A stretch of 63,885 nucleotides of DNA, filler included, from Schmidtea nova (lineage: Eukaryota): NCBI GenBank assembly GCA_044892505.1. It is 4 parts of 2 records of this genome, joined end to end, with 100 filler letters (N's around TTAATTAATTAA, not from the genome) between each part and the next. Parts side by side here need not be neighbours in the genome. Positions count along the whole stretch, not along the records: positions 29,798 to 59,552 come from CM097882.1; 3 more parts are not named here. One strand, 5' to 3'. The position numbers and the translations under genes were made by a program. Position 1 is the first letter of the stretch, and the number at the start of each line of letters is the position of its first letter. The notes beneath the pieces are model-generated. The model saw nothing but the letters and a program-made list of their open reading frames with translations, did not search any database and had not been told where the DNA came from. Shown here piece by piece: positions 9,819 to 63,885 of the stretch.

Positions 9819-9918
9819 NNNNNNNNNNNNNNNNNNNNNNNNNNNNNNNNNNNNNNNNNNNNTTAATTAATTAANNNNNNNNNNNNNNNNNNNNNNNNNN
9901 NNNNNNNNNNNNNNNNNN

Positions 9919-35923: not shown

Positions 35924-38900
35924 CTATACAATCGTTATCGTCTTTCCCTCGTATCGTTCTTCATCCTCTATTTGTTTCCAGAATTCTTTGCCTTTCGTTC
36001 TTCTTTGAAATTCTTTCTGTATCTCTTCTGGTATTTCTATTCTTTGCTTCATAACTTTGATATCTGGCCATTGTATGGCTGTCGCTTTGTTTCTCTTTCT
36101 GTATCTCCAATATACTATCATGCTTGTCGTTAGTATTCCATATGCTATTAATATTCCTATACTGATTAATCCTATTATTGTTTTTCCACTGTTTGTTGCT
36201 TTGATTTTATTCTGATTTACCTTTATCTCATTTTGGGTTTGAGCCTCTGGCTTCTTCTCCTTCTGTACTTGACTCTTGACTTTGTTCATTACTTCTTGTG
36301 TATACCAATGGTGGTTTGGTGTTTGTTTGGCGTAATTTTCTTTTGTTCGGTTTTCTACGCTTCCCGGTTTGATCTGTTGATTTAATTTCTCCGAGACTTG
36401 ATATAATCCGCATTCTGGTTCTTCTGACCCTTTTCTCGTAAAGGTACATATCGCGTATGTCTCACTTACTTCCATTTTTCTTAATTCGACTTTTTCTTTA
36501 TTCCTTATTTCTTTACAGTGGGTCAGGTTGTCTTCTTCCACTTCTGGTTTATGTTTTGTCCAACATATTCCTTCAACTGTCTGATCGAGTCCTGTTAATG
36601 TCAGAGTTCTTTCTGTCTTTGTTAACCCTTCTTCGTCGAATTTCAGGATCTCTCCTTTTTGGAATGTCTTGCAATTTTCTATTCCGGGTTGATCCTCTTG
36701 GATTCCTTTCTCCCATATACATATACTTCCTTCTTCGTTTATTTGTATTTCTTGTATTTCAATTTCCTGGTTTGTTCGTGATCCGTCGCTTGTCTGCACT
36801 TAGTATTCCCTTGGTTCTTTGTACCATCCCCAGCATATGTTGTTGCTTTGGTCTTTTCTCCTTATTGTCATAGCCATTTGTTCTATTATTATTCCTTTAT
36901 CGATACGTTTGGACATTGCTATCATTAACGCTATGCATACGAAATCTTGTTGGGGTGATACTCCTTCTCTCGTGTTATTTGTGCTTCTCTCCCCCTCTCT
37001 TGGTTTGTCCGTTGTATTTTTCATCTGAGTTGCTGGTTGATCTATTGTGTTTTTAATTTCTTTCTTTGTTGGTTTTACTTTATACCATTCAAGTCTAGGT
37101 GTTTCATATTTTTGACATACGACTGTCTTAGGTAGCCCCGACTTCTTTTCCTTTTCTATTATGCATATTCGATGCATGGTTCCTCTATCCATCCCTTCTA
37201 TTCGTACTATATCCTGGTCGGATTTTCTGATTATGCATTTTAGTGGGTTATTTTCCCCAATCGGTTCATCTTCTCTATACCAACATATTTTCTCGGCTTC
37301 CTGGACATTTATTACTTTTATCCCTGTCTGTGGGTTTGTTGCTTCTTCCCTACTGATTAATGTCAATATTACTGTTAGACTCAACCATTTTGAACTCTGC
37401 GGTAGGCTTCTGGTTCGCCTTTCATATTTTTCCTCTTTGCCTTTAATCTCTTTTATTTCCTTGTCTCCGTTGTTTATTCCTTTTTCCGCTTTTTGCTTCT
37501 TTCCCGTTTCTTCTAGTATTTCTACTCCATGGCTTGTATTATCTATATTTAGCCATTGGGTTGTCGATTTTCTTGGGTTTATCTTGCGTATCCATATAGC
37601 TGATAATGCGATTATTACTGGTATGGTCGCAGTTAATATTCCTAAGCCAATTAATTCTTTAATTTGTTTATTTTCGTCTGTTTGTATAGATTCGCTTTGG
37701 TTGAACATTATTCCGTATTGTCCCTTTAGTTTTCTCATTAATTGTTCTCGTTCCTCTTGCTTTCTTTTGACTTCTTTGATAACTTCTTCGGGTGTCCATT
37801 TTCCTTGAGGGTCGATTATTATTTTTTCTGCGTCCATTTGTTCATTCGTTTGACTTAGTTCCTTGAATTCAAGTTTCCTTACTACTCCTTTTGATGTCGC
37901 GTTTGCCGGTGTATAGTAGGTTACGCATCTTTCTTGTTGGTTTCCTAGTGCGTCCGTTTTTTCTATTGCGCATACTTCGTACTCGCTATTAAATTGTAGT
38001 TTTTCGATCTTGATTTCTTTATTTGTTTTTCTGCACTCTCTTGATTGTCTTCTTATTTGTTTCTGGACTATTATCCAACATATTTCTAATGTTTTATTCT
38101 CTATTTTCCATAGTGTCAGGGTTGCTGAGGTCCTCTTCTCGGTTTTTGTCGTAACTTCCTGGTTTATTGGTTGTTTATTGTTTTTAAGGGTAGTGGTGTA
38201 CTTCGGTTTTCCTTTGTTTCGTTGTCTTCTTTTATTTTTTCGTGTTAACGTTTTGGTTCTTGTTCCGGATGAAGTTGTATATATCCCGCACTCTAGATCG
38301 TTTATCGTTATCTGATCACTTTTCTTTACCAGACATATTTCGTAAGTTTGTTTACTTTCTAAACCTTTTATTTGTATCGTCGTTGCTCCTGTGCTTGTTC
38401 GACATTGTGGTGTCATTCTTTTATTTGTTTCCTTTTCGTACTTCCTCCAGCATACTCCTTTCACATTTGGTTCTATCTCTTTTATTTCTAATGTTATGTT
38501 TACTTTCTGCTTGATTTGTTTATTTCTCTTCCTCGTTCTCCTTCTGAACTTTATTACTTCTCCAGGTTGGAATGTTTTACATTTTGTGGTACCTTTCTTA
38601 TTTCTCTCTTTTTCTAGTAGGCATAGTTTGTACATCTTATCTGCTTTTACTTCGGATACTTTAATTACTTTATTTGTTGTTGGTTTTCGACTTTTCCTTA
38701 TTTCGTTTACGCCGACTTCCTCGTTATTCCTTGCCCAACATTTTATGTTAGTATTCTGTGTATCTTCTACTTCTGTTATTGTCATAGTTTCGATTTCCAT
38801 CCCTTCCTCTAGTCGTTTTATTATTATTAGTATGAGTACTAAACATAATACTTCCATTTGGTAGGACACTCTTTCGGTTTCGTTTGTGGAGACTCTTGCT

Positions 38901-41900
38901 TCGGGCCTCTCTATTGTAATTCGTATGGTTGGTGTTGTTTGCTTATCTATTGCCTGGGGTTTTTTGTTTTCTGTTCCCTGTGTCTCTGTTCTTCCACATT
39001 TTCCGACGATGTAATCTCCTTTGTGTGACTGTTGTACTGTCATGGTTACTTTAGGTGTTTGGTAGTTTGCGCATGCGATTGTGTTGTGTGATCTTGGATA
39101 CTTTTGTTTTCTAACGGTGCATATTCTGTACCAGGTGTCTAGATCTAAGTCATCGATCTCTATGATCTCTTGCTCGTATTCTGAGATTCTGCAATCCATC
39201 GGACTATTTTGTTCCGTGATTTTGTCCTTTTTTGACCAACATACTCGTTCGATTCCTTTTGCGTTTTTTATTTGTATTATTGCCCTTTCTTCACATGTCA
39301 TTCCTTGACTTGGGTTAATTAACGTTAAAAGCACTGTTAATAATAGTAATTCTGGTCTGAAGAATGGTTTTATGGTTGATTTATAACCTGTTCTTTGGGT
39401 GTCATTTTTATCTTCTTGGTCGTTTTTTCTTTGTTCTGCCTCTTCATTTCTTGGTCTTTCGTCTTCATTCTTCTTTTCTTCCTTGTCTCGTTTCTTGTCT
39501 TCTCCTTCATTGTCTTTTTTATCGGGTGGTTCGTGATCGTTCGAATTTTCTGAGTTGTTATCGTCGTCACTGTCTGCATTGTCATCTCCCCCTGGCCCGT
39601 CGAAAATGTCGTCCTCGACATTGATTTCTTCTATCAATTTTGCATATGCTAATGTCGTTAGATTACTTGCCTCAAATTCTTGTGTTTCTACATGCTCCGG
39701 TATGACTTTGTTGGTGGATTTGTATTCCGAGATTTCCTTTTTGGCCTTGATCCAGTTGTTGATGTACGTCTTCATCAATTCTTTCCATTTTCCTGTGTAT
39801 TTTTCTTCTTTCGGGTTGTTGGTGATTCTCAGATCTTTTCTTTCCATAAATATCATCAATATCTCTGGCCATTTATACGTTATTAAGGCACTTCTTATGC
39901 ACCAGTTTTGGTTATGTTCTGTGAACTCATTAATCCTGAATGCTGGTTCGTTGGTATTCGGATTTATCCACGTAAGTATTGCTTCTGTTAGTTCAACATT
40001 ATGCATCATTGTTAGTACACTGGGTTTCTTGACCGTATCAGTTAGGTAATCTATTTCTTCCTGATTTGAGATTGTTTTAATGAAATTGACCATTTCCCAA
40101 TTATGTGTTAATAATGCTACATCCAAAATTGAATTATCTTTATCTGTCTTTCCTGTAAGTCCTGCACCTGCTTTGTATAGTTCTTCTAACACCTTTGTTT
40201 TCGTTTTGGCCCTTGCTGCAAATACCATGAGTGTATCTCCTTTCTCGTCTATCATATTCATGTTGCTTCCGCAATTTAGCATTACTCTTGCAATTTCTAT
40301 TACCTTCCTATCTTTACCGGTTCGTAAAGCTCTATGTATTGGCATTATTCCGTCCTTTGGTAGTAGGAATGCTACTGGCATCTCCTTTTTTATAGTCGTT
40401 ATATCGTTACCATTGTATGTTCCCTTTGCGTATGCGTGTACTTTTTCAACTAATGCACCAAGTATTTCTAGTGCATGTTTACAATTTTCGAATTCCGGCA
40501 ACAATTCTTTTGCTTTTTCTTGTATCGCATCTAGTCTAGCTTGGTATGGTGCTTCTGCTTTGAAGAGTGGTGTGAGTTTCTTGTTACTTTCTCTTTCTTT
40601 TTTCTCCAAAACCTGTTTACATTTCTCGGGGTGGTTTAAGATTTTTACTAATTCATCATACTCACTTACTATCGTCTGGTATTTCTCGTTAAAATTGTTT
40701 ATGTCTTTGTATGTTATTAGTTTATCAAGTGGTTTCGCACACCATTTCCCAATCTTGTTGAATAAGGCCTCCTTCTCTTTATCGAATTTGTGTTCTTCTT
40801 CATTCTTTGTGATGTTTATGTTTCCTCTGTCTAATAAGGCTAGTAATGTCTTTTGATCGCAAGTAAATTTCAAAAGGTATCTTAACAGCGCGTTTTGTCC
40901 TTCGCTGTACACTTCATTTATGTCTAAGACCCATGCATCATCTTCTGGTCGTTTCCATTTGATTAACTTACGGATCGTATTACATTTACCAATTTTTATT
41001 GCCTCTTTGATAATATCTCCTTTTATTAATTCGTCTATTTCCCACGTGGAGTTAGCTATTATGTATTTCAGCATTGGTTGGTGAGAACTCCATATTACGT
41101 GATTCAGCACTGTTTTGTCTTCTCTATCCCGTTCTGTCCAACTGAAATGAGCTTTTATCAACAAATCTACCATTTCTTTATCTGCTTGATGGATTGCTGC
41201 TGTCATTAATGGGGTTTCCTGTTCCCGATTCCCAACGTCCAAATGTTGGTTTGTTTCTTTGGCGATTTTTAAGAATTCCTTTGCTCTTTCTATGTTTCCA
41301 CACCTTATCGCCTGGTGTAAAGCTGGTTGTCCTTCTACATCTTTCAATAAGAGTATCTCAGGGATTCTCTCCAATAACTCAGAGATAATTGGTTTGGTTG
41401 GTAATCCTTGTGCGTAACCGCTAATTATATATCTAATGTCCCTTGATATGCCTGCTTCGTCTCTAACATGCCATCTTCCCATTATCTCTCTCGCCTTCAA
41501 TATGATTTCTTTATTTCTGATTTCCTTTTGCCTTATTTTCGCTTTGTCGTCTTCGCTTGTGTTTGCTCTGAGCATATTTATCCTGGCTGTTTGTGATCTG
41601 GTTATTATTCGATTTTCTGGTGTTGTAGTTATCGTTTTAGGCACTTTCTTACATCTGCAGGTGTTTACATATATGGGTCGTACTAACGGTCGATTTATTA
41701 GCTTAACTGTGACATTATTGTCTTTTTTGTATATAATCTCATAAGGTCCTCGTCCAGGTCTTTGAAGTTTCTTAACAGTTCCTGGTATTATTTGGGGAGT
41801 TTCTATTATCACCCAATCTCCGGGTTTTAGATCGTTTGCCTTAACATTTTTCTTCTGGTCGTGCAAGTCCTTATAACTTTCTTGATAAAATTTAATGTTG

Positions 41901-44900
41901 AGTTCTGCCGTCTTCCATATTTCCTGCATTCTTTCTTTGAATTTGGTTACGTAGTCGTCGTCTTCCATATATTGCGATAATGGTGGTTGATACTCCAAAT
42001 CTATGGGCATGTTGCATTCTCTTCCATACATAAGTTGAAACGGGCTTAGTTTTGTTGCGGCGTGTATCGACATTCGGTATGCCATTAAACATAATTTTAT
42101 GTACTCGTCCCAGTCAGTTTGGTGTCTGCCGACGTAATTTGATAACATTCTAATCAGTGTACCATTGAATCGTTCTGTTTGTCCATTCGTTTGCGGGTGG
42201 TACGGTGAAGTTCTCAATTTTGCTATTCTAAAATAGTTTGTCACCTCGTTCAATAACTCACTCATAAAGTTAGTTCCTTGGTCTGTGAGTATTTGTTTTG
42301 GAGTTCCGTATCTGCAACATATTTCTTCCACCAAAAGTTTTGCTACGGTTTTTGCTTTTTGGTCTTGCATGGCAAATGCTTCCGGGAATTTCGTCAGATA
42401 ATCCATTATCACCAATATATAGATATTTCCGTTAAGACTTTCTGGTAATGGTCCTATTACGTCCATTGCTATAGTTGTCATTGGCTCTGCTGGTATTGGC
42501 ATTGGTTGTAGCGGGTTTTTCCATTTCTTCCCACTATCCTTTCTGGTTGCGCAAGTTAGACAATTTTTAATCCATTCTTTAATATCTTCTTCCATTGTTC
42601 GCCAATAATATTTTTGTCTCATCCGATTAAATGTCTTTTTCTCGGACATATGACCTCCTAATTTCCGATCGTGGTATTGGATCATTATCTCTTTCCTTCT
42701 GTTTTCCGGTAAACACATCAATCTCTTTTCACCGTCTTGTATTAACAACCATCCTTTATTTATTATATATCGATGTTGATATTTTCCTATATGTTCCTTT
42801 AATTCCTTATTATCCTTGAATATATCCATATTTCGAGATGTTAGGAACTCTATGATCTGTCCCAATTCTTTGTCTTCCTGTTGATCTTTCTTTAACTCAC
42901 TAAAATCTAAATCTTCCGCTATTAACACACAAATTCGTTGTACATCCGGATCGGTTAATTCCGGGAATGTCAGTCTTGACATACAGTCTGCATTCGCATT
43001 TGCTCGTCCTGATTTAAATTTTATGTCTGGTGAGTACTCCTGTAACTGCATTGCCCATCGCATTAATCTACTGGATGTTTCCTTGTGCTGTCCTAACCAT
43101 ACAAGCGGTTGGTGATCTGTTATTATGCAGATGATGTGTCCCCATAATAAATATTTAAAGTGTTTAATTGCTAGTATAATTGCTAACGCTTCTCGCTCGG
43201 TTACTGAGTAATTTTTCTCATGCTTTTTGAATGTTCGGCTATAATATCCGATTACCCGTTCTTTTCCTTCGTCGTCGTATTGTCCTAATACTGCTCCTGC
43301 TGCATATCCGCTTGCATCTGTTGCAAGTAGGAATGGCTTCTTAAAGTCTGGGTGTACCAATATGGGTGCGGTTATCAGTTTATCTCTCAACGTTTCAAAG
43401 GATGTTTGTTGTTCATCTCCCCATATGAATGATACATCTTTCTTGACTAGTTCCTGTATAGGTTTTGCTATTCCGGCGTAATCTTTTATAAACTTTCTAT
43501 AGTATCCACATAGTCCGAGAAATTCTTGTATCTGGGTTATTGTTTTGGGTACTGGACATTCTTTTACCTTGTCGATATTTCTGGGATCCGGTTCTTTTCC
43601 CTTTGCTGACACTATATGTCCCAGAAATGTAACCTTTTCTTTTGCCCAATCACATTTGGATGGCTTGAGTTTTAACTTCCATTGTCTAAGTCTAACGAAT
43701 ACGTCTCGAATATCCTGTAGGTGTTGTTCGAATGTACTAGAGTAGATTAATAAATCGTCGATGTAGACCATGCACTGCTTTATTCCATGGGTGACGAAAT
43801 TCATGCATCTCTGAAATGATGCTGGTGCGTTCGTTAGTCCAAATGGCATCTTTCGAAATTGATATAGGTCTCTACCGATGGTAAAGGCAGTTTTCTCTTT
43901 ATCTTCTTCCTTCATTTTTATTTGCCAGTATCCGCTTTTCAGATCTAGTGATGTAAAATATGCTGCTCCCTGTAATGTTAATAGCATTTCGTTGATGTCC
44001 GGTAATGGGTAAGTGTCTCGTTTTGTTACCGTATTCAATCTTCGATAGTCGATGCAGAATCTCTGTGTTCCATCTTTCTTCTTTACCATTACCACTGGAA
44101 ATTGCCAGGGTGAACAACTCGGTTCGATCACTTCTGCATCCAACATTTTCTTCACTTCTGCTTCCGCTACTGCTTTCTGTGCTTCTGCTAGTTTGTACGG
44201 CCTTAATGCAATTGGTGTTTCGTCTGTTAATGGTATCGTATGTAACGTGACATCACATGTTCCTAGATCTAAATCGGATGCTGCAAATATATCCTTATAC
44301 TCCATCAGCAGTTTTTCTAACTGCTGCTTTTGGTCCTTATTTAATAATTCACTATCAATATTCCAGGTTGGTTTTTTATCTTTCTCTGCCCCTTCTATTG
44401 GTATTTCGATATCCATCATTGGGGTTAATTTTCCTAGTCTTTCGTTTTCGTAGATTATTTTATCCTCCTCGTCGAAATTTACTACGTTTATTGGGATTTC
44501 TCCATTATCGTTTATGTTGACTAATCCTCTTGCCATTGGCAACGCTTTTCTTTTCTCGAATCTTTTACTTGGTTCAAAAATCATATCCCCTTGGATTGTC
44601 GGATCTATTTTTACGTAACATATTTTTTCCTTTCTTGCCGGTATTATCATTTGCTTTGAACTCGTTACCTTGGCTTCTATTGCGCATATTTGTCCGGTGC
44701 GATCTTTTAATCTCATTGTTCCGAGGTCGATTACAATCTCTTTAAATAACGCTGGCATCAAATCTGTTCCGATAATGCAAGGTACGCTTAACGCTGGTAT
44801 GACTGCTACGTACGTATCGATTTCTGTGTTTAAGTGGCGTATTTTTACCCACCATCTTCCTGCTACTTCTACAATTTCTTAGCTACATGCAATTACATGG

Positions 44901-45154
44901 ACGTTTGTTCTTTCTATTTCCCGTCTTTGCTCTTGTGGTATCCATTTGATGTCGATGGCGGAAATGTTTGCTCCAGTGTCGATCATTGCTTCGATTTCCC
45001 TTCCGTTAATCTCTATTGTTGTGGTTAACACTGGACCTGTGTTTGATGACATTACGGCGATCGTATGTGCGTCTCCTTGTGGATCTACACTTCTACATCT
45101 TCTCATTTTATAATCTTCTGGTATCATGGGGTATACATTTGTCATTGGCATCAT
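35924..45154 (-). CDS. pol: Pol polyprotein PR-RT-RNaseH-IN extended by 2x ankyrin modules and 2x signal/FN3-like/TM modules; two in-frame stops (44879-81, 36800-02)
   Basis: IDTGA..CIIGTDL protease; RFCIDYRRLN, FRKMPFGLTNAPASFQ, YIDDLL RT; TDASG, EREALAI, TDHQPL, NANADCMSR RNase H; H..GGH..CLTC, AMDVIGP, TDQGTNF, YHPQTNGQTERFN, GPYEI integrase. ORFs 44879-45154, 36800-44761 and 35924-36799 share one frame. Confidence 0.95.
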
Positions 45155-48100
45155 CTACATCGTGGTCGTTCTTCCTCCTTGTAGTGGTTCTTGATACATT
45201 GTTGGTGGAGGTGCGTAACATTTCCACGCGTCGGCTGGATTCTTTTCGATGTATTGTGGTGCTTGGTTCTTATACACTTGTCCTCCCTTATAGTCGTCAT
45301 CGTCATCATCGTCGTCACTCGAATCATTTTGGGTTTTATATCCTTTCATCCTTTCCCATAAACCTTTTCTTTCTCTCTTGAGCTGTTGTCTTGCTTGTTC
45401 GTCATTCATTATCTTTTTAAATTTTCGTCCTACTTCTTCATCTGTTCCCTTCATTTTTGCGAGTATCTTCAACAATCTCTTTATTCGATGTATGTCCTTT
45501 GAGTGTCCGTGCAACACCATCGTTTTCGCAAGGAATGGTAAAAACCCTACTACCATTTTCCAATTCACTTTCTTTTCTCTCTTGTAGATATCGAAACACG
45601 CTAATATTTGCGTTATTATCACTCTGACGATTTGTATTATTAATATAACCCCCAGTATTCCCGCCATCATTTGTCCGAATATCAGGAATCTTCCCCACAT
45701 TGCTTTCATCATATTTTCTGTGGCTTTCTTGAAATGTGTTGGTGACAACAACAGTTCATAATTCGGTCCTTCTCGATAATTCGTTCCTCCCGTTATCGTT
45801 ACGATATTTGACAGTAATGCTTCTCTTCTCGCCGGGAATAATATATTCTGCCTTGCTGCTTCTAAATCCTTTGGACTATATATTCCGTTGTTTGAGACAT
45901 CTACGTCGCTGAATTGCCTATCTTTTGACAACTGCATTAGCTTGAATTCTCTTGGTGCTATCACTTCGGCTCTTCCTGGGAACATAACCCATTTACCATC
46001 TCGTTTCTGATAAAGCGGTCCGTACGCATTACTACAGTTGAATGGATTTGGTTCAAAGCCTGGTGGATTGATGATTCTCGTCACCAGTTGAACGTATCGT
46101 ACTTTTCCTTTGTAATCGATTTCTAACTCATTTGTACAGGTTCCAGGTTTCAACTGTGTTGTTGCTGCTAGCGACGCGTGTGTCTTTTCACAAATGTATA
46201 CATACATTGCTTCTCCAACCACTCTTCCGAAATGTCCTTCTCTCAGTGGTAATAATGGCATCGCGCTATCTGGATTCGTAATCGCTACGGCCAACTTTGT
46301 CTTTAATATTTCTCGATTCAGTATACAATCATTGTTTATCAGATCGTAGTACACTTTTTGTAATGAGGCTTGTCCTCTATGGAATAAGAAATCCATTTTA
46401 TTATTCACATACAAGTGTAGTTTGATATCCATTGTGTCAATTTTGGGTTTCGCATTCGGCACTTCTTGTTTTGACACATATATTCCTGGATAATTCGTTT
46501 CGTATACCGTTGTACTACACTTAAGGGTTGCTTTACCTTTTATGAATCTCATTCCCACATCCTGATTTGTGGTTATCAACACTGATGGTGTGGCTCTCAT
46601 CTCTATCCGTTTTTCTCTATGATCTGGTTTCAATTGTCTTTTATTCTCTAAAGCTTCCTTGAGATGCTTTGCTCTAGCTTTGTCGTCATCGTCTTCTTCC
46701 TGGAACGTTTTTCCTTGGATTTCGTCGAACTTTGCTCCTTGCAGCAGTTGTAATTGACATTCGTTCACCTTTGGTTTGTACACTAATGTTGACATTCCCG
46801 TTTGACACATGCTCCTGTCGATTTTACACATGGATAACGTTTTCATTTCTCCCGTTGTGGGTTCGAAGAATGCTTCGTAGCTTTTCAGTTCGACTATATA
46901 CGTATCCATCACCACTAAATTGGTTGCGAGTGCTCCGAATATCGGGTAGGTTTCTCCTTGACAATATACTTCTCCTCCCGTAATCCGTCCTGCTACATAG
47001 TATGTCTGTTGCAGCATCATTCCTGGCTTTCCTTTTATCTTGATTTTATCTCTTGTTGTTACTTCTCCATGTTTAAACAATGCTTCACAGTCTTCTCCTT
47101 GTAATATGATTGGTTCTCTTTCCGTTCCTGGCATGACAATTGCTGAATAATGTCCTCTCCCACAGTAGAATGCGAATCTCGTCTTCTGCACCTTACATTC
47201 ATTCACCATTGTCTTTATGAGTTCTGCTTCTTGATACACGTGGTACCATTGTTCCTTTTTAATCTCCTTTAACTCTACTGGAGTTGCATCTTTGCATTGC
47301 TCCGTACCTCTCAATGAATACTTTTCACCTAATGCCATCCGATCGCAATCAAATACTTCGAATGCTGTTGCGCCATCGGTACTAATCATCCATATCAACA
47401 TCATCATTATGATAGAACTCAGATTCATTGATGACTTGGCGTTTCCTGTTCCTGTTTGTTCTTTTTCTAGTTCTCCCAATATTTTTTCGAATTTCTTTTT
47501 CATATTCTTGGCTTGCGTTTTCTTCTGGTTAGTTTTTATAAATGTTTCCAATCCTCCTTTGTTAATGACGTAGGGTTCTATTTCTCTAGCTATAATCTTT
47601 GCGGTATTTTTTATATGTCTCTCTAATGCAGTGGGTTTTGGTCGGCCTCTACTCAGTGTCAACAGATTGTAGATAGTGTATGCAATGGCTATTACGTATT
47701 TGTTATCTGTTTCCGCTCCTTCTGTCAATTTCTTTATTAACGTAGTGGTTCCTTGCCAGTCTAAATGATTTGACTTCGTCTTTTCTTTTATGAATTCCGG
47801 TAAGATGGGTGCGATTGCGCTGTGTAGTGACTTCGCCTTTTCGCTTATTTCAGTTATACGCCAGTATATTCTTAATTCCGGATCAATTGTTGCTAATATT
47901 TCCATTATTGTTTTCGATATCCATTCCTCCCCTTGACATTTTGGTGTTGTCTCTTTTTCTTTTGTCTCCGCGATTTTATTTAATTTCCTTAGACACAATT
48001 CCCATTGATCTTGTCTCTTTTCATCCTTATTTCTGATGACTACATTCGCTGGATCTGTCTTGGGTCTACCTCGAGGTCGTCTATCCATTCCTGTACCTGT

Positions 48101-48505
48101 TTCCACAAACCTTGTTGCCTGTCCGGTTTCTTCCGTGACATCTCTGGGTTCGTTAGCTCTTTCTTCTAACCATCTTTCCATTTCCTGGGTTAATTGTACA
48201 TTTTCGACATTCGCTCCTCTTGGTTCGTCTTCCGTCAAATCGTTTACCTCTTCTATTATTATCTCTTCTTCGACTTCTGTTTCTCCGGTGTTGGTTACTT
48301 GTACTGTCGTAGGTAATTCTTGTATTCTCTTGAAAATGTTGTCGTCTTTTTCCTTTGTTAATTCGGTTAGCTCTTCTATCATGTCGTCGCTGTCTGTTAA
48401 TATTTCGTCCACGTCGTATGGTTGTGGTGGAGTCCTTTCTCTATTCCCTCTGGGTGTTGTCTCCGATCGTCTTGAACTTGTCCCTGGTATCAGTACTGAT
48501 TTCAT
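45155..48505 (-). CDS. env: Bcl-2-like domain + chuvirus-like (class III) envelope glycoprotein
   Basis: After an internal signal-like stretch (MNLSSIIMMMLIWMISTDGATA): FEVFDC..SL...C, ECKVQKTRFAFYCG, YVNNKMDFL, DCILNREIL, VGEAMYVYIC, CTNELEI, GIYSPKDL..ILFP and a C-terminal TM. This matches the Cys/motif pattern I recall for Chuviridae glycoproteins. N-terminal EIEPYVINKGGLETF resembles Bcl-xL BH2. Confidence 0.85.
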   Translation of the reverse strand: MKSVLIPGTSSRRSETTPRGNRERTPPQPYDVDEILTDSDDMIEELTELTKEKDDNIFKRIQELPTTVQVTNTGETEVEEEIIIEEVNDLTEDEPRGANVENVQLTQEMERWLEERANEPRDVTEETGQATRFVETGTGMDRRPRGRPKTDPANVVIRNKDEKRQDQWELCLRKLNKIAETKEKETTPKCQGEEWISKTIMEILATIDPELRIYWRITEISEKAKSLHSAIAPILPEFIKEKTKSNHLDWQGTTTLIKKLTEGAETDNKYVIAIAYTIYNLLTLSRGRPKPTALERHIKNTAKIIAREIEPYVINKGGLETFIKTNQKKTQAKNMKKKFEKILGELEKEQTGTGNAKSSMNLSSIIMMMLIWMISTDGATAFEVFDCDRMALGEKYSLRGTEQCKDATPVELKEIKKEQWYHVYQEAELIKTMVNECKVQKTRFAFYCGRGHYSAIVMPGTEREPIILQGEDCEALFKHGEVTTRDKIKIKGKPGMMLQQTYYVAGRITGGEVYCQGETYPIFGALATNLVVMDTYIVELKSYEAFFEPTTGEMKTLSMCKIDRSMCQTGMSTLVYKPKVNECQLQLLQGAKFDEIQGKTFQEEDDDDKARAKHLKEALENKRQLKPDHREKRIEMRATPSVLITTNQDVGMRFIKGKATLKCSTTVYETNYPGIYVSKQEVPNAKPKIDTMDIKLHLYVNNKMDFLFHRGQASLQKVYYDLINNDCILNREILKTKLAVAITNPDSAMPLLPLREGHFGRVVGEAMYVYICEKTHASLAATTQLKPGTCTNELEIDYKGKVRYVQLVTRIINPPGFEPNPFNCSNAYGPLYQKRDGKWVMFPGRAEVIAPREFKLMQLSKDRQFSDVDVSNNGIYSPKDLEAARQNILFPARREALLSNIVTITGGTNYREGPNYELLLSPTHFKKATENMMKAMWGRFLIFGQMMAGILGVILIIQIVRVIITQILACFDIYKREKKVNWKMVVGFLPFLAKTMVLHGHSKDIHRIKRLLKILAKMKGTDEEVGRKFKKIMNDEQARQQLKRERKGLWERMKGYKTQNDSSDDDDDDDDYKGGQVYKNQAPQYIEKNPADAWKCYAPPPTMYQEPLQGGRTTTM

Positions 48506-48536
48506 CGAGCTCGGCGTACTTATACTTCCGTGTGGT

Positions 48537-51500
48537 TTATGGTTTACGTTTCAATGGTTGACCCGCTATTGCTTCCATTGTCAAGGTATTCATGAGATCT
48601 AGTTGTGCTGGCGTTATTCCAATTTCCAAACTGTTATCTAATGATCGTCCTTGGTGTTGTAAATGGAATGGTGGTTCGTATCTCAATTTCTTTTTAATAT
48701 CTCGGATTTTTTCTGCTATTCCTACCCAAAATTCTTCCTTATCCTTGTTTGGATATATTATTCTTAAATGTACTTTTTGTGGAATTTCCTGCGAGAATTC
48801 TTGATTTCTCCATTTCCTAATTACGTGGTCTAGTTGTTCCGGACACCACTCGTTAACTCTTTTATATTCTGCGATTGCTTTTGCCACTTTACGCAAGCAT
48901 GTTATATCTTCTCCATTAACCACGAAAAAATCTGCGAGACCTTTTATTACTTTTCTCTTACCGTGCGCATTAGTTTTTAATATTTCGACAAATTCTTCCG
49001 TTTTTTGCTTTTCCTTTTCTAACCATATAGCCGCTGTTTCTGGTCCATCTAGGTCTATTGGCGTAGCTTTCCTTGTTACCATGCAAACCCTTCCCATTTC
49101 TGGTTCGCAGTCATCTTCCATTCCTTTTTCATATTCTTCTTCATATTCACCTTCTTTTGGTTCCCAACATTTTCCTTGCTCGTTCCATTGTTTTTCTACG
49201 GGTGTTCGTATTCGTCTGTTGAGATTGAGTTCTTCCAATACATTTTCCCACTCCGGCCAAATCCGCCAATTTCGATAGATGTCTACTATTTGTTGTAATT
49301 TGCGCACAACTTCTTTTTGTCGTTCCCGTTCTTTTTTCTCATCTTTAACAGTTTCCCTTGGTGTATCGTCCATTCTGATCACGTGGATTGTTTGGTAATT
49401 ATCCCATATGCCAATCTTATATAGTCGTCTCTCATCGTGATCCCACAATATATGTTCGTTATATTTCATGATTATATCGTCTTCCCATTCGTCTTCTAGT
49501 TCTCTTTGCACCAGTGTCTCGTTTATGACCTTTACTAATTCTCTTATGGTGCAATCTGCTACCACTTCAATTTCTTTGGTATCCTCATTAGGTAACTCTA
49601 TTGAAATTTTTAGATCCGCTATTTTCCCTTGTCTGAACATTGTTTTTCCCATTTTTGCGATTAATTTGTCGTGTGAGATCTGTGACCATCTCGTGTGACT
49701 TGTGTCACGTATGCACTCGATGCATCGTTTCAGCTTCTCGTATTCGCTTCTCATTAACTCTTTTCTATGTTTTTTGACTTGTGGTATGATTTGTTCTATC
49801 AGGGAATTTAGATTTTTTCGTAAGATTCGTCCTTTCTCGTATTCTAACCGTGGTTTTATTCTCCTTTCAAAGCACGTGTTTGCTTCATTTGCAACTTCTT
49901 GTAGGTTCTCTTCTTCCTTTTCATCGCATATTGATAACAGGGTTACTTCTCCTGGCCATATACCTGTTTCTACTAAGTGCGTTCTTTTCTTTACGAGTCT
50001 ATTCTGCGAATAGATGAATTTGTTTTTATATGAGCTCCCTAGCCTGTCCTCTACCCATCTGTAGATATCGTCTGTAAATGGAGTTTTGATCCAGATTCTT
50101 GGTGTAGATGTATTTATCATTATTGAGATGGTGTAATTGAGGAGTGGTTCCTCTATTAATTTCCCTACGTATCGATTTAACATATCTACTTCTCGGTCTT
50201 GTAACCATTCTTTGTAGTTCATTTGCAATAATGCTTTCATGAATTTCCTATATTGTTTCTTGTCCATGAATTCTTCGTTATATATTACTTCTAGCGAATT
50301 ATCTAGTAATTTCTGGATTTCATCTACTTTTATCTGAGTAGGTTCTGAGGTCTTTATTACTTTTATCTCTTTGTTTTCGTCTTCGGGTTCGTTTAATATG
50401 TCTCCTGCTAGGCTACTGATATCACTATCTTCTTCCTCATCGGAAAACTCTCTGGTGGTATTTCTTAACATATTAATGTGTGCTATTTGGTTCGTTTCCC
50501 CCTGTATATTCTCCGTTGGTTCTGGTTCGTTTTTGTCAATCTCTGGTGTTGGTTCACTCTTGTCCTCTATTACTTCGACTTTTCTCATTTTCTTCTCCAA
50601 CTGGTCTATCTCTTTCAGACGTCTTCTTATCATTTTTCCTTTAAATATTCGACTGATTCGGGTTTCGTGACGTATTCGTGCTGGAGTTTTCTCTGGTTCT
50701 ATTTCTTTGATAATCATCACGTTTCTTTTTGTTTCTACTACTCCCATGTTTTCCCATATATCCGTTAACTTCAACTTTACTTCTGGCGCACCTTCTATTT
50801 GTAAGAACGCTTCTCTGGGAAGTTTCGTTACTCCTGGAACCATCTGGTTTACTTTATTGAACAGTATTTCCACCTCTTCTTTTACGTTATATTGGAATCG
50901 GAACATATGGTTGTTGGGCATGATTACCATCATTCCTTTTTTCCAAATTTTCCTCCTCTCTTCCTGGTTTATCTCAGTTTCTACTTCCTTTTCTATTTCT
51001 TTTTCTGCTTCCTTATCGTCTTGTATTACTCCTTTTCGACTTCCATTGTCGGTTGGATTCGAATTTATTTCTAATGTGGTTTCTTTCTCTGTTTGCTTTG
51101 TTGCTCTCATCATGTTAATTCTTAGAGGTTGTCGCTCTCTTTCTTGCTGTTTTTGTTCATCTTCTCTTTGTATTCTTGCCCATTCCTGAGCGTGTCGTGC
51201 TTGACTTTCTCGATTCAACCGTTCGTTTTCACTTTCTATCTTTCTCATCATGCTAATTTGTTGTTGATTGGTTTGCGGATTTCCTCTCGTCGTGTTGTTT
51301 ATAAGTTCCGTCAACCTTTGGACTTCTTGCATCAAATGTATTTCTTTGGTGGTGGTTTTGTTCTGACTATTGTTATTATTGACTTGTTGGTTTCCATAAT
51401 CTTGTCGGTTTACGGTATTTGTTTGATTTCCGTAATTTTGTCGGTTTCCGTTGCTCTGCCAATTTCCTCGCTGGTTACTTTTTTGTCCGCAATTTCTTGA

Positions 51501-52910
51501 ATAGTGACCAGGTCGTCCGCAGTTAAAACAGGTTATCGTAGAACATCTACTCTCCGAGTGTCCTTTAACTCCACATTTTCCGCAATTCAAATTTTGATAA
51601 CATTCCTGCTGCCAATGTCCCAACTTTTCACATGTTTTACATTGTTTTGTTTGTCCTTGAGGGTTGTAATTGTTTTGGTTTCCAAAGTTCTGCACTTTAT
51701 TTCCTTCATTCCTTCTTTGAGGGGGTGGTCGGTTTAATTGTTGCGAATTTGGAATGTGATTGTTGAGATTTACTTCTGGTTCAGTTTGTTCTGTGTCCAT
51801 GGCTAAATAAATTCTGCCCTCACTTCCTATCATATGCAATTCGAATCTGTTAGGTGTTTCTAACGCTTGATCTATGGTTTTGCATCCTTGGCATCCAACT
51901 TGCGCTCTTATGTCAGGTCTTCTTAATCCTCCTATGAAGATGGCTGCCATTAGTTCCTCGTTTATTGGACTCCCATCCTTAAATACCGATTTTGCTAATT
52001 TTTTCAGTTCGCTCGCGTATACCGCGTTAGACTCATTCATCTTTTGTTTTCTCATCGAAAATTCTATGAATGCTTCGCTTAGCTCTTTATTTATTCCAAA
52101 TGTTTGTTGGAAAAAGTCCTTTATCGCTGGCCAGTTTGCAGGTGGATTGGTACCATTTTTCGCTTCCAAATATAGGTCCAATGCACTATCTTTCAAATAT
52201 AGCTGAATTCTGCTTACCGTTGTTTCGGCTTTCCATTTGCATACTTCCACGAATATGCCAAATTCCTTTAAAAAGGTTTCTAATTTACTTGCATCTCCGT
52301 TAAACGGTTCTCCTGAAAATTTATCCTTTATTTCTTCTCTTGGTTCACCCATTTCAATTCCGCTGTCTTGAGTTGTTTTACTTTCGTTTCCTCTTGTTTC
52401 TAGTTCGTTGTTATGTTCGTCTTCTGTTTCACTCGAGCTTGAATCGCTTTCTGTTTCTCTTACTACTTCGTTATCCGATATTATATTTTCGTTATCACTC
52501 TCGTTGGTTTCTACTTCTGGTTCTACCTCGTTTTCTACTTCTTCGATATTATCGTTGTTAGTTTCGCCGATTTCTCCTTCTTGTTCTATCTCGTGTTCTA
52601 TTTCTTCGATATTATCGTTGTTAGTTTCGTCGATTTCTATTTCACTTGTTTGGTTCTCCTTGGGTTCCGCTTGGTTTTCCTTATTACTTGAGCTGTTGCT
52701 TACTACCGACAATTTATCGTTTTCGATAATCGCTTTATCTCTTATTATCTTCCTTGCTTTACTCCCTTGTAGATTTTTGTTGTTATCTTTGCCGGCTTTC
52801 TTCTTTTTTGTTGGGTTTGTTGTAGTACTAGTTTTGTCTTTTTTGTTAATATCGCTGCCGACTTTCTTTTCTGTTGGCTTTATTACGACACTCTTTACTC
52901 CTGTTCTCAA
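48537..52910 (-). CDS. gag: Gag (capsid-like, three CCHC knuckles) with a ~900-aa C-terminal extension including two ubiquitin-like domains
   Basis: FNGDASKLETFLKEF..RKQKMNESNAVYASELKKL..FIGGLRRPDIR capsid pattern; CKTCEKLGHWQQEC, CGKCGVKGHSESRC, CFNCGRPGHYSRNC. The ORF start is a TTG; the first ATG is near 52352. Confidence 0.92.
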   Translation of the reverse strand: MRTGVKSVVIKPTEKKVGSDINKKDKTSTTTNPTKKKKAGKDNNKNLQGSKARKIIRDKAIIENDKLSVVSNSSSNKENQAEPKENQTSEIEIDETNNDNIEEIEHEIEQEGEIGETNNDNIEEVENEVEPEVETNESDNENIISDNEVVRETESDSSSSETEDEHNNELETRGNESKTTQDSGIEMGEPREEIKDKFSGEPFNGDASKLETFLKEFGIFVEVCKWKAETTVSRIQLYLKDSALDLYLEAKNGTNPPANWPAIKDFFQQTFGINKELSEAFIEFSMRKQKMNESNAVYASELKKLAKSVFKDGSPINEELMAAIFIGGLRRPDIRAQVGCQGCKTIDQALETPNRFELHMIGSEGRIYLAMDTEQTEPEVNLNNHIPNSQQLNRPPPQRRNEGNKVQNFGNQNNYNPQGQTKQCKTCEKLGHWQQECYQNLNCGKCGVKGHSESRCSTITCFNCGRPGHYSRNCGQKSNQRGNWQSNGNRQNYGNQTNTVNRQDYGNQQVNNNNSQNKTTTKEIHLMQEVQRLTELINNTTRGNPQTNQQQISMMRKIESENERLNRESQARHAQEWARIQREDEQKQQERERQPLRINMMRATKQTEKETTLEINSNPTDNGSRKGVIQDDKEAEKEIEKEVETEINQEERRKIWKKGMMVIMPNNHMFRFQYNVKEEVEILFNKVNQMVPGVTKLPREAFLQIEGAPEVKLKLTDIWENMGVVETKRNVMIIKEIEPEKTPARIRHETRISRIFKGKMIRRRLKEIDQLEKKMRKVEVIEDKSEPTPEIDKNEPEPTENIQGETNQIAHINMLRNTTREFSDEEEDSDISSLAGDILNEPEDENKEIKVIKTSEPTQIKVDEIQKLLDNSLEVIYNEEFMDKKQYRKFMKALLQMNYKEWLQDREVDMLNRYVGKLIEEPLLNYTISIMINTSTPRIWIKTPFTDDIYRWVEDRLGSSYKNKFIYSQNRLVKKRTHLVETGIWPGEVTLLSICDEKEEENLQEVANEANTCFERRIKPRLEYEKGRILRKNLNSLIEQIIPQVKKHRKELMRSEYEKLKRCIECIRDTSHTRWSQISHDKLIAKMGKTMFRQGKIADLKISIELPNEDTKEIEVVADCTIRELVKVINETLVQRELEDEWEDDIIMKYNEHILWDHDERRLYKIGIWDNYQTIHVIRMDDTPRETVKDEKKERERQKEVVRKLQQIVDIYRNWRIWPEWENVLEELNLNRRIRTPVEKQWNEQGKCWEPKEGEYEEEYEKGMEDDCEPEMGRVCMVTRKATPIDLDGPETAAIWLEKEKQKTEEFVEILKTNAHGKRKVIKGLADFFVVNGEDITCLRKVAKAIAEYKRVNEWCPEQLDHVIRKWRNQEFSQEIPQKVHLRIIYPNKDKEEFWVGIAEKIRDIKKKLRYEPPFHLQHQGRSLDNSLEIGITPAQLDLMNTLTMEAIAGQPLKRKP

Positions 52911-53520
52911 CGGGATTACTTTTGTATACTCAATTTTCCTGTCTTATCTCTTATCGTTTTCTGATTCTTCTTGTTTGATTGATTGATTTGATTGATTTGT
53001 ATATCTAAAATACAAAGGTCCTCAACGATACATTATTGTTGTCGTCGCGCTTTTATTCCATTTCTTTCGGGATTACTTATTACTGGGTTTTCATTATTTC
53101 CCCATTCCCAGATTCCCCTTTATTTTTAGTCTATTTAATTTATCTATAGACTGGTCACAATTATCTATTTATGTCGTAATAATTATCTATACTTTTATAA
53201 ATCAATTACTTTTCCCACAGTTTCCCAATTTATTGGTCGCTCGAGCGCTCTAATTCCTTGAGTCTTTCTGACTCGTTTATCATTATTTATCATCTCTATT
53301 CATTATTCCCTGCTAGCAATCGTTTTACTCATTCTGCCGGTTGCTCCGGTCAGCCCAAATTTTTTCTATTCTCCTTGCATGCTTTACTTAAGGTTGCATA
53401 ATCAGCTTTACTCGCATTTCTTAACTACTAGTGCGCACTATTCTAAATCTCGTCGACGATTACACTATGGGTCTATATTCCCTCTGTTACTAATTACCCG
53501 GATATCTCTATAATTCTCTA

Positions 53521-53776
53521 TGGCTCTTTTGGCCTCAATTTTAATATCTCACATGGCTCTATTGGCCTTAATTTAATATCTCAACTGGCTCTACTGGCCT
53601 CAATTTAATCTCTCATATGGCTCTATTGGCCTCAATTTAATCTCTCACATGGCTCTATTGGCCTTAATTTAATATCTCAATTGGCTCTATTGGCCTCAAT
53701 TTAATATCTCGATTGGCTCTATTGGCCTCAATTTAATATCTCAATTGGCTCTACTGGCCTCAATTTAATATCTCAA
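53521..53776. repeat. 32-bp tandem array (8 copies) in the element leader
   Basis: TGGCTCTA(T/C)TGGCCTCAATTTAATATCTCA.. units start at 53521, 53554, 53586, 53618, 53650, 53682, 53714 and 53746. Confidence 0.95.
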
Positions 53777-53816
53777 TAATGCCTAGCTAGGTCATTCAAT
53801 ATGGCTCATTGGCCAC

Positions 53817-53955
53817 AACCCTTTGTTTCAAGGGACAACCGCTAATAACCCTTTGTTTCAAGGGACAACTCTAATAACCCTTTGTTTCAAGGGACAACTC
53901 TCATAACCCTTTGTTTCAAGGGACAACTCTCATAACCCTTTGTTTCAAGGGACAA
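53817..53955. repeat. 29-bp tandem array (5 copies) with an internal hairpin
   Basis: AACCCTTTGTTTCAAGGGACAA at 53817, 53847, 53876, 53905 and 53934. Confidence 0.95.
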
Positions 53956-54427
53956 ACCTCGTATAACTTTACTTAACCGGTTAATCACAATTCCTAACTT
54001 CGCTAGCGACTTAAATTTCTCAGCTGAGTTATAACTACTTCTATGCGAGCTGATTATGCACCTTTTTATACCGTCATTCATTTTCTATTTTATCGTAACT
54101 ATTTTCTGATCAGTCTGCTTCAATATTTTATTAATTTTTCTATGCGCGCCTTACTCCATCAAGAGTTCCCTATCTCTCTCCCCAACCAAAATATACAAAA
54201 AGATCGCGTTGGTCTATTAATGCGGGATGTGGTGATCAGTCACATCACAAAAACTTTCCAACATTTGCGATGGGCCCCTTTCTATATGCTCTGAATGGGT
54301 TGATCAATCGGTGCCTCCCAGAGGATTCTTACCGGACTACTTTGTAGTAGCTCAAAAATTATTTAAATACAATGATTGTTCCCATGATTCACCATTCGAC
54401 ATTTTACTAATCAACTCTAAACATTTA

Positions 54428-54931
54428 TTACAAATAAACTATAATTTTTTCATTCACAGTAAAGTTGCACATCGGACACCGGTCACACTTGCTGGCACAG
54501 ATCTTACAAAAACGGAAATGTCCGCAAGGTAAAAACATAATTTGTATCTCGTTGTTTTCACATATATAGCACTGTCGGTATTTTTTCGCTGCTTCTACTC
54601 CTTGTATTCTCCATCGATTGTATGTTGGGGTTAATTGTTGTTCTATTTGTCTGCATCTAATGTTTAGTTCCGCAGTCTCTAGTCGTGCTCTGTACCATTT
54701 GTAGCGGGTTTTTATGTCGATTTTACTTGTTCCTTCTGTTATCTTTATTAATTCATCAGTTTCCTCGGTCTGTGTTGTGGGTTCTTGAAATTCAATTTCT
54801 CTAAATCGGTTTATTTTCTTGCCAATTGTTGCTAATGTTTCGCTTTCTGTGTTGAGAAATTCTTCGATTTCTTTCAGTTTTTCCTCCATTTGCTGAATAA
54901 ATAATCGTTTTAACTTTGTTGTTTTTATCAT
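54428..54931 (-). CDS. Coiled coil + C-terminal IAP-type RING finger protein (167 aa)
   Basis: CYICENNEIQIMFLPCGHFRFCKICASKCDRCPMCNFTVNEKIIVYL at the extreme C-terminus, the IAP/XIAP-type RING pattern; no BIR domain. Confidence 0.88.
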   Translation of the reverse strand: MIKTTKLKRLFIQQMEEKLKEIEEFLNTESETLATIGKKINRFREIEFQEPTTQTEETDELIKITEGTSKIDIKTRYKWYRARLETAELNIRCRQIEQQLTPTYNRWRIQGVEAAKKYRQCYICENNEIQIMFLPCGHFRFCKICASKCDRCPMCNFTVNEKIIVYL

Positions 54932-54935
54932 TTTT

Positions 54936-55021
54936 AAAGTAGTAATATGTCTCGTTTTGTGTCTTTTAATATTTATTTAAAGTAGTAATATGTTTCGTTT
55001 TGCATCTTTTAATATTTATTT
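54936..55021. repeat. 43-bp tandem duplication just upstream of the RING ORF
   Basis: AAAGTAGTAATATGT(C/T)TCGTTTTG..TCTTTTAATATTTATTT twice. Confidence 0.85.
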
Positions 55022-58200: not shown

Positions 58201-58306
58201 GATTTTTAATTTAGGTTTTTTGAATGTTTTTGTGGTTATTATTTGTATTTATTGTTTAAATTAGTACAATATTTTTGTCTTTTTAGACCAATTGGTGGGC
58301 CCAACA
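55262..58306 (-). repeat. 5' LTR, 3,045 bp
   Basis: Starts TGTTGGG and ends CCCAGCA (6/7 terminal inverted repeat), followed directly by the PBS; repeated at 29798-31951. Confidence 0.92.
55737..56345 (-). CDS. LTR-encoded ORF-B (~202 aa): coiled coil, Arg-rich motif, acidic/aromatic C-terminus
   Basis: ATG at 56345 (MGLLFS..); KRKRIGSKRRRQRK; EMSEAEWLSEIFPPEGIFKEFL. The visible part of the 3' LTR copy (29798-29989) is identical. Confidence 0.7.
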   Translation of the reverse strand: MGLLFSMTETSQQRELDKAWRIRRALEKELNQEKALRAKAEAQIQYLRTSWFAPARMKEQMSRTERAQKTADDYRTEWEATKIELRRCLHSVTTSFIESELKAQIRPITYQKWVGEQKVACSVSTDTDGLEATTVQSRVKAAITPNPVGKTNKRKRIGSKRRRQRKLFSQQLQAQVTTMAEMSEAEWLSEIFPPEGIFKEFL

Positions 58307-59550: not shown

Positions 59551-59652
59551 GTNNNNNNNNNNNNNNNNNNNNNNNNNNNNNNNNNNNNNNNNNNNNTTAA
59601 TTAATTAANNNNNNNNNNNNNNNNNNNNNNNNNNNNNNNNNNNNNNNNNNNN

Positions 59653-62789: not shown

Positions 62790-63175
62790 CTAATAGAAAA
62801 ATGAATATTAAAACAAATCAAACGCATCATTCAATTGTGTGCAAATTATCATTGCTAAATCTCATCAGGGAAGGAGGACAAAAATAACAATGAAATATTG
62901 AAAGAAATGGGTGATATTTACAGCTAGCATTTGTCCCATATTGATATCACTAGACACCAATTCATCATTGACGGCCATTAGTGCCAATCATGCTGTCTAA
63001 TATTGTCCTAATATCACGTACAGAAACATATCGCTATATTTCTAATGGAAAAGTAAAGAAATTCATTCAAGCGTGAAACTACAAAAATCCATAGTTACCC
63101 ACATTAAATTATCCAATCAAAACCAAGAAATATAATCCAATCAAAACCAAAAATATTATCCAATCAAAAGCTTAC

Positions 63176-63862
63176 TAGCAATAGCAAATGAAATTGTTCT
63201 ATTCAGCATTTTCTTGGTATTCACCAGAATGCTTTTCATTGTGCATTTGAATGTCCATTTTGAACCGGCCGGGCTGTTGCTATGGATATGGATTTGGTGA
63301 CCTTCCCTGGTGATATTGTAGAACCGTTCCGCATTCGGGGGGCCTTCAATCAGTTGCCAATTTATTTCTGGATCTGGATATCCATCACTGGTGTAGCACT
63401 TTATGGTAGAGTTTGATGGGAATCTCTTGATGATGATTGGATGGATATATAATGCGGTCGGGTGATCTGGAATGGGGGAATGGATCAAATCCAATGAAAT
63501 TGGGATATTTATCAATGAATATGAAGGAAGTTTCATATAAAAAGATAATAAATAATATAAATAATATTTACTTGCAATTCTGAATGAGATCGTCTTATTC
63601 AGGATTTCACAAACATTTTCTATGCAACTTTGAATGACGCATTTGATCTTCCATTCAGATTTGGTCGGGCAATTTCCGTTCAGGTGAATTTGCGTTCCGT
63701 TGCGCACGATATTATAATATGTTGATGCGCTTTCTGGCCCCTCAACTATTTCCCATCGGGCTGCCGCAACCGGATATCCGTCAGAGGGGGCACAATCAAT
63801 TGTGGAATTCGGTTCCATTATCCCGTCTGGCATTGGCATGATACGGATTGATGTCGGGTGGC
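63176..63862 (-). CDS. Two tandem 291-nt phase-1 exons each encoding an Ig-like domain
   Basis: Exons 63862-63572 and 63466-63176 with AG/GT boundaries; repeats HPT..I.P....NSTI.C..SDGYP....W..VEGP......KW..KC (Ig C..W..C pattern). Confidence 0.82.
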
Positions 63863-63885
63863 CTGAACGGGAAATGATTATTTAC

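Follow-up and report, generated by a model that had tools for sequence, protein, structure and literature searches.

Predicted FN3 membrane modules at the end of Pol in a Burro-like giant Ty3/gypsy element of Schmidtea nova

Why would the Pol frame of a giant retroelement run on into what looks like a pair of membrane receptors? The question is raised by a window of 63,885 nucleotides (the whole stretch of DNA analysed, filler included) from Schmidtea nova (assembly GCA_044892505.1), which joins four parts of two records and in which positions 29,798 to 59,552 come from CM097882.1. A long terminal repeat (LTR) element of at least 28.5 kb occupies the minus strand at 29798-58306; by its layout it is a Burro-like giant Ty3/gypsy element, a family already known, and it carries a tail resembling fibronectin type III (FN3) domains. 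A preliminary description of the locus held that Pol ends in two tandem receptor-like modules, each composed of a signal peptide, FN3-like repeats and a transmembrane (TM) segment. As judged from a modelled fold, profile matches and membrane topology, these modules are very probably FN3 membrane proteins. All features of the element given below are on the minus strand.

The Pol frame does run on into two modules (residues are numbered from the start of the open reading frame (ORF) 36800-44878, with X at the stop), and the four peptides quoted in the preliminary description all lie where it placed them, on the minus strand and in this frame. The modules are thus at the end of Pol as regards frame, but the tail adjoins ankyrin repeats and not the integrase directly. 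The acidic linker reported ahead of the first module is present as a charged stretch without cysteine (39395-39619). Module A then begins with H1, a predicted internal signal peptide (PELLLLTVLLTL, amino acids (aa) 1842-1854; 39302-39373), followed by repeat A1 (39050-39298), a second hydrophobic stretch with a conserved cysteine, H2 (aa 2010-2020; 38819-38851), repeats A2 (38561-38800), A3 (38267-38512) and A4 (37901-38140), a stalk, TM-A (aa 2409-2430; 37589-37654; Kyte-Doolittle 19-mer 2.28), with basic residues on its C-terminal side, and a predicted cytosolic tail of 67 aa (37388-37588) that runs into module B. The latter consists of H1', predicted from hydropathy and charge to be an internal signal peptide (WLSLTVILTLIS, aa 2498-2509; 37352-37384), repeat B1 (37091-37342), H2', the counterpart of H2 with the same cysteine (aa 2646-2656; 36911-36943), repeats B2 (36653-36895) and B3 (36389-36625), a stalk, TM-B (aa 2901-2924; 36107-36178; Kyte-Doolittle 19-mer 2.17) and a predicted cytosolic tail of 60 aa (35924-36106), which ends in a PDZ-type T-x-V pattern followed by the stop.

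The two modules are homologous. They align by blastp at E 8e-31 with 28% over 362 columns, and by Smith-Waterman they score 432; 300 shuffles averaged 62 and peaked at 107. Four columns (C, W, C and C) are invariant across the seven repeats, which share 15-28% pairwise identity. The tandem arrangement therefore stands in homology and architecture, with three corrections: the modules are unequal (four repeats in A, three in B), H2 and H2' had been overlooked, and B2 is interrupted in this copy by a stop at 36800-36802. The term "receptor-like" holds for the architecture only.

That the repeats are FN3-like was borne out by an AlphaFold model, structural matches and profile matches. Repeat A3 was modelled with the five other unbroken repeats aligned (six rows) and with its first strand left out; it gave a six-stranded sandwich with a predicted local distance difference test (pLDDT) of 81. 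In a structural search of 48,161 chains, the top match was a fibronectin FN3 domain (Z 8.3, root-mean-square deviation 2.9, 74 aligned), and all 50 matches listed are FN3 domains or FN3-bearing proteins by title. In the tenth FN3 module, the stretch that aligns with the model is residues 14-96; strands B-G are matched and in the strand order of an FN3 beta-sandwich. Strand A lies outside the folded piece, and A1 and B1 leave little room for it after the signal. Run against 1.84 billion proteins, the repeat profile retrieved 25 at E ≤ 1e-3, through summed weak matches, and 21 of these carry Pfam fn3 at E ≤ 1e-8. A language-model search of the repeats also pointed to fn3, at the level of a lead (0.86).

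The origin of the repeats is less easily read. Twenty of the 25 profile matches (in P0118-P0140) have a VCW/ICW motif on the same strand as the element's repeats, and these proteins are secreted and look bacterial by their other domains. The best single domain among matches of this type scores only 22 bits, so that no donor gene can be named. Searching PDB sequences with the repeat profile returned only rows at E 1.4-1.7, and the resemblance to ELFN/LRRN-type FN3 therefore stays a lead. By word-based search, no protein related to module A emerged among 7756 candidates of 360-1147 aa and none related to the post-integrase region among 198 candidates of 4712-5000 aa; comparison with a library of viral folds yielded nothing at E ≤ 1e-3.

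One could take the tail for a captured fragment of a host gene that is decaying as a passenger and whose fusion to Pol is accidental. The stop in B2 and three other breaks in this copy would suit such a fate, as would the lack of a close protein relative of module A among the candidates searched. However, the cysteine pattern has been kept over seven repeats at 15-28% identity, and variation among other copies, surveyed in four runs of one study that cover all 30 tail bins at high summed depth, also speaks against decay. The stop in B2 is missing from the contigs covering it (1-2 per run); depth at the stop is low, so most copies differ nearby. Among 12 indel rows listed (of at least 14), five of six groups are net multiples of three and the sixth is unresolved. 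The constraint test used the 33 best-supported of about 600 single-site differences in the tail, with three sites at the stop excluded: 15 of the 33 are synonymous against 7.9 expected (P 0.005), and none is a stop. Since a similar piece occupies the same place in a distant relative, HBK71150.1, as well, we consider a passenger very improbable. Some contigs fuse stalk A to tail B within 35915-37799 (36074 to 37691, 36034 to 37763 and 35915 to 37739), and one-module variants of the family thus exist in the same organism.

The topology is that expected of a type I membrane glycoprotein, with one C-terminal TM segment per module and basic residues inside. Net charge is +3 before H1, +4 before H1' and +4 after each TM segment; no basic residues precede H2 or H2'. 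Signal peptidase cuts after small residues at -3/-1. H1 has a basic side upstream, 11 hydrophobic residues and small residues at -3/-1 before the likely cut, and both H1 and H1' are putative cleaved signals that fit in hydropathy and charge. All 30 cysteines fall within the part predicted to be luminal, the linker, stalks and tails having none, and eight of the ten N-glycosylation sequons are likewise in predicted luminal parts. A2 and B2 have three cysteines each, without the next-strand cysteine found in the other repeats, and the count becomes even in every unit only when the cysteines of H2 and H2' are assigned to A2 and B2. Because each hydrophobic stretch supplies the one cysteine that these odd-numbered repeats need, H2 and H2' are probably part of the ectodomain.

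How would the modules be freed from the polyprotein? They could instead be made from spliced subgenomic RNAs, with H1, H2, H1' and H2' as ordinary N-terminal signals and the fusion to Pol incidental. Four separate ORFs lie 3' of the tail and encode a coiled-coil-like protein of 119 aa (35442-35801), a full-length TRAF2/3/5-like protein with RING, zinc finger and MATH domains (33973-35352; Pfam MATH E 6e-22, human TRAF3 chain E 7e-24), a second coiled-coil-like protein of 363 aa (32795-33886) and a protein of 189 aa with a signal-like start, one TM segment and a basic tail, with no family above cut-off (32155-32724). All four open with TAG-AA(A)-ATG (35804, 35355, 33861 and 32720, minus strand), which occurs at five sites in the element, and the gap before each contains TGTAAATA, five of whose seven sites in the element lie there, the other two being in the LTRs. 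By their placement, the two motifs are likely a splice or trans-splice signal.

The 3' ORFs thus seem to use acceptor-like starts, which would be in favour of splicing, and an AG with a pyrimidine-rich run stands just before H1, in the top 7% of 849 YAG sites. H1 and H2 are also alike, each directly ahead of a repeat, and H2 has a methionine in front. Against this, TAG-AA(A)-ATG was found before none of the four stretches, the AGs ahead of the other three stretches (H2, H1' and H2') are unremarkable, and the methionine of H2 is not kept before H2', so that three of the four stretches have none. HBK71150.1, moreover, retains the in-frame fusion at 44% Pol identity. The absence of the start signal before all four stretches, together with mostly ordinary AGs, favours release from the polyprotein by signal peptidase, which on these sequence features is probable, whereas production from spliced RNAs appears improbable. 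The flatworm spliced leader ends in AUG; as a source of the start codon for H1 it was discarded by eye, neither AG before H1 being in frame.

We then turn to the relative just mentioned. The Pol search gave 114 long matches, the nearest of which is HBK71150.1 (P0003), with 44% identity over Pol and 55% over reverse transcriptase (RT)-RNase H (RH). In an RT-RNase H tree of the element and the 45 best rows (46 in total), it is sister to the element with support 99/97. HBK71150.1 is filed in a Flavobacteriaceae metagenome bin; by content it is an animal-type retroelement and most likely represents animal DNA in the bin. Its single ORF has a zinc-knuckle-like start, a fusion protein, protease (PR), RT, RH and integrase (IN), and continues after the integrase with a hydrophobic stretch, an FN3-like region of ~260 aa, a TM segment and a tail. 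The order fusion-PR-RT-RH-IN-signal-FN3-like-TM-tail, which HBK71150.1 has in one ORF, is shared with the element, whereas HBK71150.1 has one module, no ankyrin region and another cysteine pattern, and is unannotated. A language-model score of 0.92 links its ectodomain to fn3 clusters. Its TM segment and tail align to module B with a score of 49, reached by none of 500 shuffles, and the hydrophobic C-terminus is similar. With a similar piece at the same place, the FN3-like membrane piece looks like a feature of the lineage. The repeat profile detected none among the 114 Pol matches, HBK71150.1 included. An alignment of the fusion protein found no match in metagenome, genome and viral contigs; the integrase alignment retrieved one unrelated gypsy locus (L001) from contigs and no match from genomes.

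The element around the tail has two LTRs, at 56154-58306 (5', the part matched by the other LTR, with its inner end unfixed) and 29798-31951 (3', truncated by the assembly join). They differ by 7 mismatches and 1 gap over 2154 bp (99.63% identity), and the insertion is therefore young. From the 5' side, it encodes a RING-finger ORF upstream of gag (54428-54976; PF13920 E 4e-11), a Gag-like ORF with zinc knuckles (48537-52943; PF00098 E 7.5e-7), in the gag-pol interval a class III (Monjiviricetes-type) fusion glycoprotein (45155-48550; PF24664 E 2e-69), whose region includes a hydrophobic signal-like stretch, an aspartic protease (44879-45154; PF00077 E 5e-6) that shares its frame with the fusion gene and Pol and has stops at both ends in this copy, RT, RNase H and integrase (41600-44878, low end approximate; PF00078, PF17917, PF17921, PF00665) and the ankyrin-repeat region (39620-41500, ends approximate; PF12796 E 2e-16, 3 stretches). 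Two LTRs and the order PR-RT-RH-IN are those of Ty3/gypsy elements. The length falls in the Burro-like range (~25-30 kb), the mononegavirus-type env is located between gag and pol, and the cargo combines ankyrin with MATH/TRAF, the TRAF being a separate 3' ORF. Burro-like elements are also characterised by BIR, BCL2-like, ubiquitin-like and dUTPase-like domains; here no BIR domain was matched in the scanned ORFs, candidate stretches gave no BCL2-like or dUTPase-like match, and a ubiquitin-like match reached only E 0.16. The Gag-Env-Pol ORF, which HBK71150.1 has as one ORF, is split here by a frame change and three stops.

Other observations concern the element's ends and the rest of the window. 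An ORF of 207 aa begins within the LTR (55737-56360; 29750-30004), its 3' copy being cut by the join; the Pfam scan gave no match for it. Between the RING ORF and gag, the leader contains tandem arrays of 32-bp and 29-bp units (53508-53986). Paired runs of 44 N at 9819-9918, 29698-29797 and 59553-59652 resemble contig joins, and the run at 29698-29797 encloses a 12-base spacer with stops in all frames. On another contig, a type B DNA polymerase match (E 2e-9) and an endonuclease VII match in two ORFs at 6401-9870 possibly mark a Polinton-like remnant. Two similar Ig C2-set segments occur in a host-like ORF at 63156-63881.

Membrane proteins downstream of integrase had been called very unusual, which is overstated. 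Tails of more than 300 aa after the integrase occur in 39 of the 114 Pol matches; 13 of these 39 have at least one TM-grade segment, eight have at least two, and several are env-like by eye. In one chromodomain-bearing gypsy ORF (P0031), the frame runs on into a glycoprotein that weakly matches the rhabdovirus G fusion domain (E 5e-4). In Atlas virus, a belpaovirus from hookworm, Gag, Pol and Env form one ORF; like the element, it has membrane glycoproteins after Pol, one of which, GN, is distinct from the fusogen GC; GN is the attachment protein in phleboviruses (PMC9094657, as far as its text was available). It belongs to another family, its two glycoproteins are both phlebovirus-derived and both follow Pol, and in that text the FN3 topology appears only as domain III of the fusogen, unlike in the element's modules.

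In the available part of a review (PMC6431247), the Burro / GYPSM1 elements of planarians are ~30 kb long, with a mononegavirus-type env in the gag-pol interval, ankyrin, MATH/TRAF and RING cargo biased to apoptosis and ubiquitin control, and accessory ORFs. The element resembles them in size, env position, ankyrin, MATH/TRAF and RING cargo and accessory ORFs, and differs from Burro as reviewed there in its TRAF, a full-length separate 3' ORF; the review names no FN3 or post-integrase membrane protein, such as those predicted in the element, and "fibronectin" occurs 0 times in it. Errantiviruses with the order GAG-ENV-POL and an env of the HSV/gB (herpes simplex virus) type, including Smed_errantivirus_1/2, are described from flatworms, nematodes and bryozoans (PMC13524379, accessible portions). 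They share with the element a Ty3/gypsy Pol and a class III fusogen upstream of pol, but no second glycoprotein is seen in them there; the main text contains neither "fibronectin" nor "ankyrin", and the seven supplementary files lack "fibronectin". In the planarian secretory cell nidovirus, ankyrin and fibronectin-type domains are part of one giant polyprotein for which signal-peptidase sites are predicted (PMC6211748, in the part available), but this is an unrelated RNA virus and its domains are fibronectin type II, not type III.

Since the element family, the place of its env and the occurrence of in-frame glycoproteins after Pol were known before, the surprise is limited. What is unusual is an FN3 protein after the integrase while the element's fusogen lies upstream of pol. 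An FN3 membrane protein of such elements is not described in the literature searched, though Grohme 2018, its supplements and a Repbase note may cover the region; within that literature, the novelty is an accessory FN3 membrane protein of a known giant-element family.

Our overall reading is one of duplicated FN3/TM modules, likely released by signal peptidase as glycoproteins and likely acting as attachment or adhesion proteins beside a separate fusogen; with its predicted function included, it appears to us evenly balanced between right and wrong. Several results weigh against it. The fold model is that of A3 alone, without its first strand, the tool itself notes that Z values of about 8 are modest (the stronger sign is that the match list is uniform), Foldseek found no match to the A3 model at E ≤ 1e-3 though FN3 is abundant in its list, and no repeat reaches the cut-off of Pfam fn3 (PF00041), which leaves the profile link indirect. 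H1' is less canonical than H1 in its likely cut sites, and the H2 11-mer, with a hydropathy of 4.0 and followed by KR, could stop transfer, which would send the downstream repeats to the cytosol and invert the model. This copy is broken at four places (the gag/fusion frame change and stops at 45155-45157, 44879-44881 and 36800-36802). The synonymous test covers only the 33 best-supported of some 600 tail sites, and there was no synonymous excess in a control set from the linker, ankyrin region and Pol (5 of 16 against 4.3 expected), so that the test is suggestive only. As for HBK71150.1, the scores of its ectodomain against modules A and B were reached by 2 of 500 shuffles, its tail modelled alone gave no fold (pLDDT 38) and had no match in the Pfam scan, and profile comparison to the element's repeats had a probability of 0.1. 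With no fold, Pfam or profile match, homology of its ectodomain relies on position, the language-model lead and weak scores.

Under the overall reading, the modules, which are in frame with Pol and the ankyrin region, mutually homologous and equipped with TM segments basic on their C-terminal side, and for which three methods predict the FN3 fold, would be processed as follows. H1 and H1' would act as internal signals while one long polyprotein is translated. The repeats would enter the endoplasmic reticulum lumen and gain disulfides and glycans, TM-A and TM-B would stop transfer, and cleavage would leave H1 on the end of the ankyrin-linker product and H1' on tail A. Alphavirus and flavivirus polyproteins have internal signals that are left on the end of the preceding product in the same way. 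H2 and H2' would pass into the lumen within the ectodomain and not span the membrane. In the least certain step, FN3 arrays on producer cells or particles would bind a cell-surface or matrix partner and favour cell-to-cell passage.

With the fusogen encoded upstream of pol, fusion does not call for the modules; stalked FN3 arrays are suited to binding. That the modules serve mainly for attachment is a tentative prediction, for which we see slightly less than an even chance. FN3 arrays with a TM segment are also the build of cytokine as well as adhesion receptors, and the same proteins, processed in the same way, might instead disturb host signalling by binding a ligand or receptor of the host, in the manner of a decoy or dominant-negative receptor. 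The element itself carries a full-length TRAF, a RING protein and ankyrin repeats, interferon-receptor FN3 chains are among the structural matches of A3, and the Burro cargo bias to apoptosis and ubiquitin control (PMC6431247, available part) is in the same direction. On the other hand, WSxWS is absent from the translation, tails A and B and the tail of HBK71150.1 are without canonical TRAF-binding, tyrosine or dileucine motifs, and no particular host receptor suggests itself as the donor, 20 of the 25 profile matches being bacterial-looking. We hold disturbance of signalling to be rather unlikely as the main job. Of the two predicted roles, our best guess is attachment or adhesion, with that of a decoy receptor behind it.

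Planarian genomes are rich in Burro-like elements, and for a long time half of the polyprotein of these elements lacked annotation. A conserved second surface protein would be a concrete candidate for the choice or reach of target cells, or for disturbance of host signalling, and would add a case of host-type adhesion domains retained and duplicated by a retroelement. More speculatively, and on balance unlikely in our view, Burro-like elements may possess a two-glycoprotein entry system, with a class III fusogen of viral origin before Pol and a separate FN3 attachment protein after it, built from captured adhesion domains and diversified through duplication into one- and two-module forms, both proteins being cut from a single polyprotein that spans the endoplasmic reticulum membrane several times. 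If so, the FN3 protein would set which cells the element enters.

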